Under the pieces are notes generated by a model. That model had not been told where the DNA came from. It saw only the letters and a program-made list of their open reading frames with translations, and made no database searches. Positions 51,901 through 53,943 of a stretch of 64,000 nt of DNA are shown here, in pieces. Numbering within the stretch: the stretch's first letter is position 1; every line of letters begins with the position of its first letter. Source of the stretch: Oscillospiraceae bacterium (GTDB taxonomy: Bacteria; Bacillota; Clostridia; Oscillospirales; CAG-382); the NCBI GenBank assembly GCA_015065165.1, contig SVQU01000004.1, positions 26,035 to 90,034 of the forward strand, in the 5' to 3' direction. Made by a program: the position numbers and the translations under genes.

Positions 51901-51950
51901 AAATGCTTTCTTGGTCCGAAGATTGCACTGTAACCGTTACAGTTAAATAA
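48903..51950 (+). CDS. surface lipoprotein: three discoidin (F5/8 type C)-like modules plus a C-terminal glycoside-hydrolase-like (DUF4855-like) domain
   Basis: Lipobox LTAC at residues 15-18. Three modules each start with xLTDG and end with ARYV/I..F..(S/D)E(L/I). The C-terminal region carries the GYYWWHE, WIPYFNSNGY and QPNY motifs. Confidence 0.7.
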   Translation: MKRLIAILLSVLFVLTACGTDGNESSSANSSAEQSQSGTVSADRKTTVISNGAFYTAASPASDNHADSFGAELTDGVDTSDVEAYNDSRLSGFQMKTVTIVIDLGEECEKIYGAAVSYFPHDGQGLSQTLKIDVASSSDGKKWTPYAFYDTTAEPELDKVNRAEFIKDSYVSGRYVRFKVTGNESWVFLSELEVIADVEPKAGISYLDRVYEEYTNVGTVTAPTNGTDVNKEFNKILISKGCTYKFDAKIETDNPDVNTVLTDGNKPGDYVFGSYVGFIGNGETAKITIDLGQEAADIGAIEANFMYNPTSRIHLPLSLTVTAIDASNNRTDLGVLYGTQIEQIGGFTFSLPLKKTASARYIELSFKTIDGMKHFIEEISVYSYRDSMEQSSLYPQVIIEKGEAAEKEGATSDYKNLILKQPQMIFMPVNENAKPENNSKANNPVLTDGVFSTVGEAYDIHNGKFFKFNAGDVRYIIYDLKNLSAVDCFKGSFCKEQSWGIGAPETVSVLLSANGEDWYDAGSFALTATQYNGIVRGELKLKKAVQARYVVFTFAVGQWVGCDELEAYGTEAIANSVALADSGLGLAGGDSVNGSRIEPSADLLDGAKDLCLMYQNCNNTGYTKEELLPYVAYLNEDLEIKDTMFDSFLFLYANTNMPSGAYPYSQNFKSDWQWCIDDLFGEDINLNALEQAAGETKAALNLADDFTYKITVSINYPHKNQKNFGDVDGDGVSEDLTVYANRMKVCKWFVDEVARRFDEANFKNIELVGYYWWHEQIDDESDPDSVKLIKELGDYIHSLDYDYTWIPYFNSNGYDRWEELGFDVACLQPNYVFNLEAPLSNIYNVDKYTKELGMGVEMELHGGCLKEYSYFKRYMEYITLGAELGYMDDTVLMYYQDYTVFYSAAHSGTYFGRTIYDSTYHFMKGDLKNVPDTMEGIAYEGEANKPIFGKIELPEDKRCEIQISALPENGTVVMGNDGSFAFYPAKDFKGETSFSFIYNEMLSWSEDCTVTVTVK

Positions 51951-51982
51951 TCAATCTAAATTAAAACGAACCCCTGCGATTA

Positions 51983-52019
51983 GCCCAAGTGTCCTTCAGG
52001 ACACTTGGGCAGTTTTATT
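51983..52019 (+). terminator. rho-independent terminator of the lipoprotein gene
   Basis: Perfect 12-bp stem GCCCAAGTGTCC-TTCA-GGACACTTGGGC followed by AGTTTTATT. Confidence 0.8.
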
Positions 52020-52185
52020 CGCCTTTCGGCGAGTGATATTGCTACGCAGTGATATTTGGACTAAAGTCCAAGTGATATTGCCTTCGGCAGTTAATGGCGA
52101 ATGAAATATCACTGAAATCGCAAGATTTCAATATCACTTCCCGAAAGGGAAATATCACTCTGTGCGTAAAGCACAGAATATCACT
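52011..52185. repeat. array of identical 9-mers (AGTGATATT x3 plus one 7/9 copy, then the reverse complement AATATCACT x4) separated by unrelated short hairpins
   Basis: Forward copies are at 52032, 52048 and 52071, with a degenerate copy at 52011. Reverse copies are at 52105, 52130, 52151 and 52177. Every spacer is self-complementary (see findings). Confidence 0.95.
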
Positions 52186-52199
52186 ATATAAAAGGTACT

Positions 52200-52241
52200 A
52201 CCCGAAAAAGAGTTTTGTTTTCTCTTCTTCGGGTGGTTTTG
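52200..52241 (+). terminator. second plus-strand hairpin with a U-rich tail, downstream of the array
   Basis: CCCGAAAAAGAG-TTTTGTTTT-CTCTTCTTCGGG (12 bp with 1 mismatch) followed by TGGTTTTGTC. Confidence 0.5.
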
Positions 52242-52302
52242 TCTTATACTGTTACAAGCAGGGGTTTTTGTGTGCAGCGTCTTATTAATGTACTTCGTCT
52301 CA

Positions 52303-52332
52303 TAAAAGAAACCCCGCAATTATTTGCGGGGC
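52303..52332 (-). terminator. rho-independent terminator of the ABC importer operon
   Basis: On the minus strand, CCCCGCAA-ATAA-TTGCGGGG followed by TTTCTTTT. Confidence 0.85.
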
Positions 52333-52338
52333 TTTTTG

Positions 52339-53943
52339 TTATGCTTGTTCTTTTCTGTTTATAAAGAAAACAACGGTTTTGATAATAAGGTTGATTGCAA
52401 GAATAATAATCGAAACCACAGCGGCATATTCAATCTGCATCTGAGCTTCGAATTGATTAATCATAAGCGAAACCGGCTTGTTTGCGGTGGTTGCCAAGAA
52501 GGATACCGCCGAAATAGTCATCATACAGTTAACAAAGAAATAAGAAAACATTTCGCAAATCGTGCCCTTGCATTGGGGAATCAAAACGTCCTTGATCAAA
52601 TGAATTCTGTTAATGCCAAGGGTTTGCGCCGTGCCCTCAAGATTCTCGTTAATCTTGGATAACGAGTTGTACATCATCAAATAGGGCGAAGAAATAAAGT
52701 GGATAATGTTAACCATTATCAAAATTATAATCGTACCGTAAATGGGTGTTTTGTTAAAGGTCAAAACGTAGGAAAGACCTAAAACCACACCGGGTATAGC
52801 GGCAGAAGTCATAGCGGAAAGATGTAAAAATCTCGATGCGGGAGATTTCATTCTTGCCGATAGATAAGCCGCCGTAAACGCAATGCAAACACCGATTGCG
52901 GCGGATGCCAAAGCAATTATAACCGAGTTGAATAAATAAGAATCTGCCTTTAAATTTAAGGTTTTAACAATGTTGTCAAAGGTAAAGGTCAGGTCCTGAG
53001 GATACCTTTTAGCGAATGCTAAAATAATAAAAGCAACAATAGGAAGAAGGGTTAAAAGTGAAACAATACCGCAATAGGAATAAGAGCAAAGCTTTGCAAA
53101 AAATCCGTCCGCTTGCTTGCAGGGCTTTGTAACAAAGGTGGATTTGCCCTTGTCCTTGTTCAAAAAGTCAATAATAAATGCGATAACCGCGGGGATAAGC
53201 AATAAACAACCATAAGCGGCACCCTTGCCGAAGTTAAGCTGACCAATAACCTCTTGATACATAACGGTGGCAACGGTGGTATATTTACCGCCAACCATAA
53301 GGGGCACACCATAGTCGGTAACGATAAGTGTGAAAATCGCAAATACAACGCTGATAAGAGGCTTGCGTAAATAGGGAAGTGTGATAGCGGTAAACTGTCT
53401 TGCCTTTGGAATCCCCAAAACCTCTGCGGCTTCATAGGGCGAGCCGTCCTCGTAACGTATAACGTCGGACAGCATAAGGAAAGCTACGGGGAAGGCATAT
53501 ATCACCGAACCGATAACAATGCCCCACAGACCGTAAATATTGCCCTCTAAATGCAACAAACGTGTTATTATACCGTTGTTACCTAAAAGTATAATTAAAC
53601 CCATACCGCTTGAAATAGAGGGTATCAGCATCGGTAGGGTAAGGATTATACCGAAAAGACCTTTAAACTTGATTTTGGTTCTTTGAATTGCGATAGCAAG
53701 AACAAAAGCGATAACAATTGTGATAACCGTTGCAACCAAAGCCGATGTAAGTGAATTTATGATAGCTTGAACAAAAACAGGGGAATCTACAACCTTTTTA
53801 ATGCTCTCTCCGTCCAGATATAAAAACATTCTTAACAGAGGGATAAATACCAAGGCGATAAATACTGCCGAAAGCAAAAGCTTTGTTAAATCCGAGCCTC
53901 GCTTTGTCTTTCCGCCGCCCTTTGAAATAACCTTAGAATTCAT
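52339..53943 (-). CDS. ABC transporter permease, duplicated (2 x 6 TM) Fe3+/thiamine/2-aminoethylphosphonate type
   Basis: 534 aa with two internal MalFG-type permease repeats, each carrying an EAA-like loop (YEAAEVLG.. and LEGTAQTLG..). Confidence 0.85.
   Translation of the reverse strand: MNSKVISKGGGKTKRGSDLTKLLLSAVFIALVFIPLLRMFLYLDGESIKKVVDSPVFVQAIINSLTSALVATVITIVIAFVLAIAIQRTKIKFKGLFGIILTLPMLIPSISSGMGLIILLGNNGIITRLLHLEGNIYGLWGIVIGSVIYAFPVAFLMLSDVIRYEDGSPYEAAEVLGIPKARQFTAITLPYLRKPLISVVFAIFTLIVTDYGVPLMVGGKYTTVATVMYQEVIGQLNFGKGAAYGCLLLIPAVIAFIIDFLNKDKGKSTFVTKPCKQADGFFAKLCSYSYCGIVSLLTLLPIVAFIILAFAKRYPQDLTFTFDNIVKTLNLKADSYLFNSVIIALASAAIGVCIAFTAAYLSARMKSPASRFLHLSAMTSAAIPGVVLGLSYVLTFNKTPIYGTIIILIMVNIIHFISSPYLMMYNSLSKINENLEGTAQTLGINRIHLIKDVLIPQCKGTICEMFSYFFVNCMMTISAVSFLATTANKPVSLMINQFEAQMQIEYAAVVSIIILAINLIIKTVVFFINRKEQA

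Follow-up and report, generated by a model that had tools for sequence, protein, structure and literature searches.

Gut-1 (Rfam RF01706) was introduced as a candidate non-coding RNA from human-gut metagenomes only, graded 'certainly RNA' from covariation and left without a proposed function (Weinberg et al. 2010, Genome Biol 11:R31, PMC2864571). It is filed in Rfam as a small RNA (sRNA) gene, both sources describe a 77-nt unit of three hairpins only, and we found no literature on Gut-1 beyond the 2010 paper. Here we analyse a 64,000-nt stretch of DNA from an Oscillospiraceae bacterium (assembly GCA_015065165.1, contig SVQU01000004.1, positions 26,035 to 90,034; hereafter the window, in whose numbering positions are given), in which short motifs in two opposed blocks are separated by small hairpins. 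In our assessment the best explanation, with a probability of roughly 0.6, is that this array is the core of a dispersed, multi-copy element, its left half being Gut-1, that has inserted into the loop of the terminator of a DUF4855 gene and constitutes a non-autonomous, largely selfish cassette.

Several other known systems offer points of comparison. Miniature inverted-repeat transposable elements (MITEs) and structured repeats (ERIC, BOX, RUP, Correia, REP/BIME) are short, non-coding, intergenic, multi-copy and variably present, often lie at gene ends and can terminate transcription; REP units consist of a short conserved head and a palindrome, in alternating orientation. The intervening sequences (IVS) of 23S rRNA, familiar from the Leptospira IVS literature, insert into a pre-existing hairpin loop and carry an open reading frame (ORF) for a four-helix-bundle protein (PF05635/TIGR02436). 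Folded hairpins are also what is recognised in the case of group IIC introns, IS1111-attC elements and integron attC sites.

Scanning with Rfam assigns positions 52010-52083 (+ strand) to Gut-1 with 53.5 bits (gathering score 50; E = 8.9e-8 for the window in its entirety), and no other Rfam family is at or above threshold anywhere in the window. The right block gives a weak Gut-1 score on the reverse strand (38.4 bits, 52126-52194). As in Gut-1, the left arm consists of hairpins with compensatory stems on a conserved GUGAAAU-like linker, and its relatives were sampled from the human gut, from other guts and from the rumen, although the linker is GTGATAT or GTKNTAT here, and GUGAUAU instead of GUGAAAU in the window element. 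The flanks of the sequences in the published Gut-1 Stockholm file (BAAZ01000095.1, BAAZ01025322.1) contain all of the window's elements, the opposed AUAUCAC block included, in the order terminator hairpin, CAGUUAUAUUCGCC, three hairpin-plus-GUGAUAU units, apex AUUGCCUGCGGCAGUU, GCGAAUAUAAUAUCAC and AUAUCAC-separated hairpins. The opposed block is thus best regarded as an ordinary, unmodelled component of many Gut-1 loci. The original prediction for this locus, made from the letters alone, knew of no described element class with this architecture; the class had in fact been published in 2010, with the opposed block already in the flanks of the published alignment. Of the explanations it offered, a structured non-coding RNA is nearest to the evidence, given the Gut-1 score and the compensatory changes in the hairpins, and its interpretation as a whole holds in part. 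What we report is therefore a further example of a known, functionally orphan motif and no new class, but the family is richer than its database entry: absent from the Gut-1 description are the opposed right arm, a long-range helix (P1), the 5′ terminator hairpin, mobility with terminator-loop insertion and the link to a four-helix-bundle gene.

Relatives were collected by scanning GTDB genomes with the signature GTGAWATTGCCN{2,8}GGCAGTT, which gave at least 120 loci, most of which are true elements on reading, and by a metagenome scan with the centre sequence, which gave 120 further loci (individual loci carry L numbers). In the window, the upstream neighbour of the array is a + strand gene for a 1015-aa DUF4855/F5_F8-type-C protein, whose stop codon ends at 51950, and the downstream neighbour is an ABC-transporter permease gene on the - strand that ends at 52339, convergent with the DUF4855 gene. 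When 7 kb of the window is compared with all loci by blastn, identity of 80-92% is limited to ~51980-52275, with unrelated flanks. In one orthologous locus (L121), which encodes a DUF4855 protein of 88% identity and keeps the synteny to left and right, the convergent genes lie just 89 nt apart, and this interval contains an intact terminator palindrome, AAAACGAACCCCTGCGA-AAT-TTCGCAGGGGTTTTTGTGT; a more distant ortholog (L176, 64% protein identity) has the same intact terminator. The empty sites read as a palindrome, CCCCTGCGA-loop-TCGCAGGGG, and then a T-run. In the window the two half-stems are parted: the left one runs to 51979, the right one begins at 52258, and the 278 nt between them occupy the terminator loop. 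Because two orthologs with the same synteny have empty sites, the polarity is that of an insertion, i.e. a gain. The original prediction had counted absence from relatives that keep both flanking genes as evidence against the array; such absence is indeed observed, and it shows mobility, not an artefact. Each end of the module carries a terminator-like hairpin of its own, so that the convergent genes probably still have termination between them. The parts of the locus are as follows.

51969 to 51979, + strand: left half-stem AACCCCTGCGA of the original DUF4855 intrinsic terminator, parted from its partner (comparison with L121 and L176).
51980 to 52257, + strand: inserted module of 278 nt, comprising 5′ hairpin, two-armed array, 3′ hairpin and tail; absent in L121 and L176.
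51983 to 52010, + strand: 5′ GC-rich hairpin of 12 bp with loop TTCA (terminator scan).
52011 (start): 7/9 copy AGTTTTATT, left of the left block.
52012 to 52023, + strand: P1 5′ strand, made of linker U1 (GTTTTAT) and the 5′ half of hairpin 1 (TCGCC); pairs with 52096-52107.
52012 to 52078, + strand: left arm with linkers U1-U4 (GTTTTAT, then three of GTGATAT), from the Rfam Gut-1 match and hairpin covariation.
52019 to 52032, 52040 to 52048 and 52056 to 52071, + strand: left-arm hairpins hp1, hp2 and hp3, between linkers U1-U4.
52032, 52048 and 52071 (starts), + strand: three exact 9-mers AGTGATATT, the left block.
52079 to 52089, + strand: apex hairpin hp4, TGCC-TTC-GGCA, whose four pairs are all invariant in 37 sequences and which served as search signature.
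52096 to 52107, + strand: P1 3′ strand, GGCGAATGAAAT (covariation, RNAalifold).
52105, 52130, 52151 and 52177 (starts): four exact 9-mers AATATCACT, the reverse complement of AGTGATATT, the right block.
52106 to 52184, + strand: right arm with linkers R5-R8 (four of ATATCAC); weak reverse-strand Gut-1 match, strong hairpin covariation.
52113 to 52130, 52138 to 52151 and 52159 to 52177, + strand: right-arm hairpins hp5 (loop GCAA), hp6 (loop GAAA) and hp7 (loop GTAAA).
52200 to 52243, + strand: 3′ hairpin ACCCGAAAAAGAG-TTTTGTTTT-CTCTTCTTCGGGT, then GGTTTTGTC (alignment of 12 related loci; fold).
52244 to 52257, + strand: tail TTATACTGTTACAA, the end of the insert; conserved in 10 related loci and inverted in L023.
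52258 to 52274, + strand: right half-stem and T-run (GCAGGGGTTTTTGTGTG) of the original host terminator, the same as GCAGGGGTTTTTGT of the L121 and L176 empty sites.

The 5′ hairpin (51983-52010) and the U-rich first linker form a predicted intrinsic-terminator-like signal for the upstream gene, and the 3′ hairpin (52200-52243), conserved within the window's subfamily, is terminator-like both ways. At the right junction (TTACAA, then GCAGGGGTTTTTGTGTGC) the sequence is host terminator by the comparison with L121 and L176; 52252-52275 is also close to the module-internal ...TTACAAGCAGGGAATTTGTGTGCC... of longer modules (L034, L086, L029, L107 and others), a likeness that may reflect coincidence, flank capture, or a core or microhomology common to both and used in integration. 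Further downstream, 52309-52334 is a separate bidirectional terminator (AAACCCCGCAATTATTTGCGGGGCTTT) that serves the ABC permease gene; the L121 hairpin at this place differs, and in its left half the permease-side terminator is similar to the corresponding half of the split DUF4855 terminator (51963-51979).

On a base-for-base recheck, all coordinates and strings of the original prediction (52011-52185) are correct, and all spacers between neighbouring 9-mers are self-complementary, in agreement with its claim of a hairpin in each interval. The seven exact 9-mers have no further copies in the window, where by our own arithmetic ~0.5 exact matches per 9-mer would be expected by chance on both strands, and folding of the array region relative to shuffles gives z = -11.8 (+ strand) and -11.2 (- strand). 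The conserved linker is the 7-mer GTGATAT/ATATCAC rather than the 9-mer, the outer A and T of which are the closing pairs of the adjacent hairpins (each hairpin has T...A at its ends). Likewise, the 16 nt after the apex that had been taken for a decayed central copy are no decayed repeat; instead, GGCGAATGAAAT (52096-52107) complements GTTTTATTCGCC (52012-52023) and covaries with it in the family. The feature also extends beyond the limits first given to it, the conserved inserted block (51980-52257) adding the hairpins at 51983-52010 and 52200-52234.

The presence of identical 9-mers beside unrelated hairpins could be taken to indicate a one-off local product, generated by repeated palindrome insertion with 9-bp target duplication, by local palindromic duplication or by misassembly. 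Unit number can be altered by tandem duplication, as seen in L093 (1-330), where the apex unit is expanded to at least five copies of GTGATATTGCCTGACGGCA, and assemblies do fail here: the short-read Logan contigs L125 and L126 end within hairpin 1, and L124 (6038-6647) has the identical DUF4855 protein and left arm but continues from the element centre on as a diverged copy among other genes, a pattern suggestive of chimeric joining or of recombination at the repeat. However, breaks of this kind are what multi-copy repeats produce, and an identical 295-nt block with both flanking genes is found in two independent metagenome assemblies of the same organism, L122 (JGI) and L123 (ENA). An assembly artefact is excluded on the strength of this identity and of more than 100 homologous copies elsewhere. 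Since the hairpins match position by position in these copies, the array is inherited as a unit; repeated palindrome insertion with 9-bp duplication is not supported as its origin, even though the unit as a whole is an insertion. A one-off local product is, on these grounds, extremely improbable.

The parsed set comprises at least 112 distinct two-armed elements among the matches listed, 59 of which show the canonical layout, with four linkers in each arm. The true elements from GTDB derive nearly all from gut or rumen Clostridia metagenome-assembled genomes (MAGs), namely Acutalibacteraceae, Ruminococcus, Oscillospiraceae, Christensenellaceae, Faecousia and Ruminiclostridium. On the + strand, their common anatomy begins with a long, perfect hairpin, which in 67 of 83 copies has a stem of 6 bp or more (10-16 bp in most) and stops no more than 3 nt short of the first linker. 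Linker U1 (GTTTTAT or GTTATAT) and hp1 (TCGCC-loop-GGCGA) follow, then U2, hp2 (TGC-TWC-GCA), U3, the variable hp3, U4 and the invariant apex hairpin; beyond the apex come GTT-nnn-GGCGAATAWA and the right arm in the order R5, hp5, R6, hp6, R7, hp7, R8. Several variants of this plan were noted. Single-armed GTGAAAT copies occur in Ruminiclostridium, with a rho-independent terminator behind them; the right arm of L112 (1130-1350) is a left-type arm inverted; and L014 (1250-1420), in a Bacteroidaceae MAG, is a seven-unit, single-orientation array of AGTTATATT and hairpins near a four-helix-bundle gene. Extra hairpin-forming inserts are present within loops of the element's own hairpins, in hairpin 1 of L109 and in hairpin 6 of L017 and L038 (the L017 insert includes a linker-like 7-mer, ATATCTC), which hints that loops may be favoured insertion points at this smaller scale too.

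Covariation was tested on a 37-sequence alignment with shuffled and slid controls. Compensatory change in the hairpins, proposed as a check by the original prediction, is strong: the local hairpins have double changes in 27 of 37 pairs and a covariation of 0.375, compared with 0.107 after shuffling and at most 0.107 in the slid controls. The same holds for P1, a 12-bp long-range helix between 52012-52023 and 52096-52107 that closes the left domain. Here, 99.1% of cells are paired, double changes occur in 5 of 12 pairs, and the covariation of 0.141 exceeds both the shuffled value of 0.049 (0/500 shuffles reach it) and the slid controls (≤0.03). The fourth P1 pair, for instance, is A-U in 19 and U-A in 17 of the aligned sequences (AT 49, TA 30 among 85 parsed copies). 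An unguided RNAalifold run predicts P1 together with the hairpins. Natural variants add to this: in L069, hp1 and the centre are altered together (CCGTC/GACGG/GACGGATTT), in support of P1, and in the middle unit of the same locus the whole left domain is swapped for P1 with a GACA cap; moreover, a divergent, Christensenellaceae-type subfamily keeps the P1 pairing with a different sequence (TAAATAAATCC/GGATTTATTTA). P1 and hairpin 1 share a 5′ strand and are therefore alternative pairings. In L023, hp1 is compensated locally and the terminal P1 pair is lost (GG at that pair), and given this copy both states seem to matter.

The original prediction had instead drawn three stacked four-way junctions from nested pairing of the two blocks. 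The window copy is able to form them (minimum free energy), but they are not maintained in evolution. Nested left:right pairing amounts to 92.1%, compared with 91.2% after partner shuffling, so that any left motif suits any right motif equally; the third U2:R7 pair is broken in 21 of 37 sequences, and the copies in which all three inner left:right helices are perfect number just 11 among the 59 canonical ones, that of the window included. The nested helices were accordingly rejected, as they lack register-specific complementarity or compensation and RNAalifold picks P1 in their place. Kissing interactions between left and right hairpin loops have no consistent partner; only hp3/hp6 exceeds partner shuffling (0.49 vs 0.28), which is attributed to shared ancestry. 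An internal promoter at the centre (TTGCCT-N18-TAAAAT) was dropped because its spacing is not conserved (21 nt in the long-apex subfamily) and because P1 already explains the centre sequence. Selection maintains the fold of one strand, most likely the + strand. The predicted fold opens with a long 5′ hairpin, for which the first linker supplies the U-tract, continues with a P1-closed domain of small hairpins on GUGAUAU linkers, and ends in a tail of three longer hairpins, mostly with GNRA/GNA loops, on AUAUCAC linkers.

The choice of strand follows from several observations. In the unique right-arm hairpins read on the + strand, G.T pairs outnumber A.C pairs by 24 to 5, and the right-arm loops on this strand are mostly GNRA or GNA. 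The non-Watson-Crick pairs of P1 are mostly G.U on the + strand, and the single-armed relatives have their rho-independent terminator on the GUGAAAU strand. The folded strand is thus most likely the + strand, and this evidence is compatible with RNA and single-stranded DNA alike. hp2 (52040-52048) reads TGCTACGCA in the window and TGCTTCGCA in most copies, which is the reverse complement of a d(GCGNAGC)-type mini-hairpin, and right-arm hairpins such as TGCGAAGCA contain the d(GCGNAGC)-type motif on the + strand. Mini-hairpins of the d(GCGNAGC) type are unusually stable in DNA, and the motifs may bear on the question of RNA versus single-stranded DNA.

Strong covariation in the hairpins and in P1, together with the GNRA tetraloops and the + strand G.U excess of the right arm, would also be expected of a two-domain Gut-1 sRNA gene, whose + strand is transcribed and folds as P1 plus hairpins to serve as a scaffold or sponge and whose dispersed copies are paralogs. 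The partners of such an RNA could be the adjacently encoded four-helix-bundle protein, or targets reached by base pairing via the four AUAUCAC and three GUGAUAU linkers. The Rfam sRNA class and the 'certainly RNA' grade (PMC2864571) agree with this interpretation, as do rho-independent terminators after the right arm (window 52200-52243, L054, L018) and after single-armed copies. Eleven of 111 copies lie 33-38 nt behind a tRNA or tmRNA gene, i.e. just behind highly expressed genes. However, G.T wobble and GNRA/GNA loops stabilise single-stranded DNA too and are hence no proof of RNA. No conserved promoter is found within the module, the sequence upstream being unconserved, and the strong terminator-like hairpin and U-tract with which the module starts should halt incoming transcription. 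Insertion into a terminator loop, with presence and absence among close relatives, would moreover be unusual for sRNA paralogs. We therefore hold the sRNA gene to be a possible but tentative alternative to the mobile cassette.

The occurrence of one motif in direct and inverted blocks equally raises the prospect of a protein-binding array on duplex DNA (an iteron, centromere or operator), in which GTGATAT would be recognised both ways and the flanking terminators would insulate. In keeping with this, the two arms change jointly between lineages (GTGAAAT/ATTTCAC in L069, GTTATAT/ATATAAC in L104), terminator-like hairpins lie on both module sides, and in 13 of 83 copies the -35 box of a conserved promoter directly adjoins the last right motif. 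The omega (inc18) operators, iterons and centromere repeats share with the window element a short ATCAC-containing motif in direct and inverted copies, and the original prediction had proposed an omega-type iteron or centromere. Omega heptads, however, are contiguous, whereas the starts of neighbouring motifs in the window are 16-34 bp apart, an irregular spacing set by covarying hairpins that duplex binding does not need; the family variants ATAACAC, ATACCAC and ATTTCAC violate WATCACW, the context is chromosomal, and the covariation of P1 is left unexplained. Within 3.5 kb of 103 loci there is no ribbon-helix-helix or Rep gene associated with the element and no recurrent DNA-binding gene family, XRE genes in 5/103 loci aside (the window itself was not scanned for ribbon-helix-helix genes). 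The omega-type proposal is not supported, and duplex binding in general is improbable. A CRISPR array was likewise rejected: its direct repeats would measure about 21 nt or more, with unique, non-palindromic spacers of similar length between them, and here the repeats are 7-9 nt long and in two orientations and the spacers are hairpins that are homologous between loci.

For the mobile cassette, dispersal and target preference provide the principal support beyond the window. Perfect complementarity (12-15 nt) between the left flank and sequence to the right of the module is observed in 9 of 71 loci, compared with 1 of 344 controls, and the sequence is a different one in each of these split-terminator loci, with an A-run to the left of the module and a T-run to its right. 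Copies that are nearly identical but have unrelated flanks share a contig (L054, L018), multiple copies in a single contig or MAG are found in L018/L050, L054, L020, L069 and L246, and the combination of multiple copies with insertion polymorphism between related genomes, as known for MITEs, is seen here in the empty sites of L121 and L176. In L069 (2900-4700, - strand), promoter, tRNA-Thr, tRNA-Tyr, terminator and GTGAAAT/ATTTCAC-type element form a unit that is present three times in tandem. L020 (900-1830) reads tRNA-Ala, terminator, element, promoter, short ORF and a 34-nt 3′ fragment of tRNA-Ala, and its 413-bp unit is repeated whole and ends in the same tRNA-Ala fragment; this has the appearance of a miniature integrative unit in tandem, or of a plain tandem duplication. 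Integrase-type att duplication at tRNA genes was rejected, as a downstream repeat of the tRNA end is confined to the L020 and L069 tandems and no integrase is nearby in the 103 loci. A phage or plasmid origin was rejected as well: the only GenBank 'Bacteriophage sp.' match (MT835815.1, unverified) is an ordinary tRNA, element and four-helix-bundle locus. We found no literature on terminator-loop-targeting repeats in Clostridia.

Many relatives proceed from the last right linker directly to a TTGAAA-N17-TATAAT promoter, a strong ribosome-binding site (AGAGGTGAT) and a small gene. The sole recurrent cargo family is a 116-aa four-helix-bundle protein (TIGR02436, E = 3e-31; PF05635, 23S_rRNA_IVP, 3e-28) that is also weakly like Avd of diversity-generating retroelements, at a sub-threshold level. 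By tblastn the gene is present in ~25-30 of ~240 loci, with several copies truncated, and its ORF starts ~160 nt past the apex in the 10 loci where both could be placed. In at least 20 loci, whose upstream genes are unrelated, it comes directly after the right arm, as in L030 (3904-4251), L010, L051, L081, L092, L100, L193, L175 and others. Among the remaining cargo are small membrane proteins, a DMP19-like protein and XRE regulators; no cargo ORF is present in the window copy. No literature that ties PF05635/TIGR02436 to such repeats was found.

These features place the element between described systems. Like MITEs and other structured repeats, it is ~0.2-0.4 kb long, intergenic, multi-copy, variably present and highly structured when single-stranded. 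Unlike MITEs and REP elements, it has eight different, position-specific hairpins in place of one long or one repeated palindrome, lies in the loop of a terminator hairpin, and has no target duplication, cognate transposase or RAYT, or long terminal inverted repeats that we could find. With the 23S rRNA IVS, as these are described, it shares a location in a hairpin loop and a protein family encoded directly after at least 20 of its relatives; it differs from them in that the window copy has no ORF and the site is a terminator instead of an rRNA helix. Group IIC introns, IS1111-attC elements and attC sites resemble it in their preference for terminator-like stem-loops and in the conservation of structure over sequence, but the element has no group II intron or other Rfam match besides Gut-1 and no integrase or reverse transcriptase nearby, and its module lies in the loop as well as after the hairpin.

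A number of observations weigh against a selfish mobile cassette folded on the + strand. Empty sites are known for the window locus only, the other split-terminator cases being deduced from flank complementarity. A non-exhaustive inspection by eye of the junctions of the window and of other loci recognised neither target-site duplication nor clear terminal inverted repeats; the core ends in imperfectly inverted 9-mers, AGTTTTATT and AATATCACT, and in nothing more of that kind. No recurrent transposase, integrase or other recombinase family lies within 3.5 kb of 103 loci, no autonomous parent was found (no opposed arms separated by cargo in the 8-kb loci), and there is no copy in IMG/VR, where all 48 matches are chance matches in coding DNA, or in PLSDB, which gave none. 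Compensatory change in seven hairpins and in P1 goes beyond most selfish repeats and is as expected of a functional RNA, and the single-armed Gut-1 copies resemble ordinary sRNA genes. Finally, the left arm is without wobble asymmetry (G.T 5, A.C 4), and its loops (TTC, TAC, TTGC, TTAC) mirror the spectrum of the right arm, contrary to what a single-transcript model predicts. Divergent transcription from the centre, an idea that arose from the mirror-image loops, has against it that no - strand terminator comes after the left arm in the window's subfamily.

For the cassette to spread, the single-stranded fold and its repeated 7-mers would act as cis-signals for a trans-acting factor, and terminator hairpins would be the preferred landing sites. 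The element would be tolerated because it restores termination, by the hairpin and U-tract (U1) on the left and by the second terminator-like hairpin on the right.

Gut-1 has stood in Rfam as an orphan 'sRNA' since 2010, known from gut metagenomes only and represented by a 77-nt model. The present analysis extends this picture to a real unit of ~175-430 nt that is two-armed, has a covarying long-range helix and occurs widely among Oscillospirales-type Clostridia from gut and rumen, that acts as a mobile module landing in or just after terminator hairpins, and that is recurrently linked with a promoter and a four-helix-bundle (IVS/Avd-like) gene. For annotation, such arrays break short-read assemblies (L125, L126) and can give chimeric joins (L124). 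Whether RNA or single-stranded DNA is the active form, what moves the element and whether the four-helix-bundle protein binds it are now testable questions. On a more speculative and rather doubtful reading, two-armed Gut-1 is the cis part of unrecognised mobile cassettes that home to DNA-encoded hairpin loops, with the four-helix-bundle 'IVS protein' as cargo or cofactor and the P1/hairpin-1 switch and 7-mers as a code on the folded single strand; the known landing sites would be intrinsic terminators and, by extension, could include IVS-bearing rRNA helices. If true, this would provide a common function for the orphan Gut-1 motif and the orphan PF05635 family and would explain the origin of rRNA intervening sequences.

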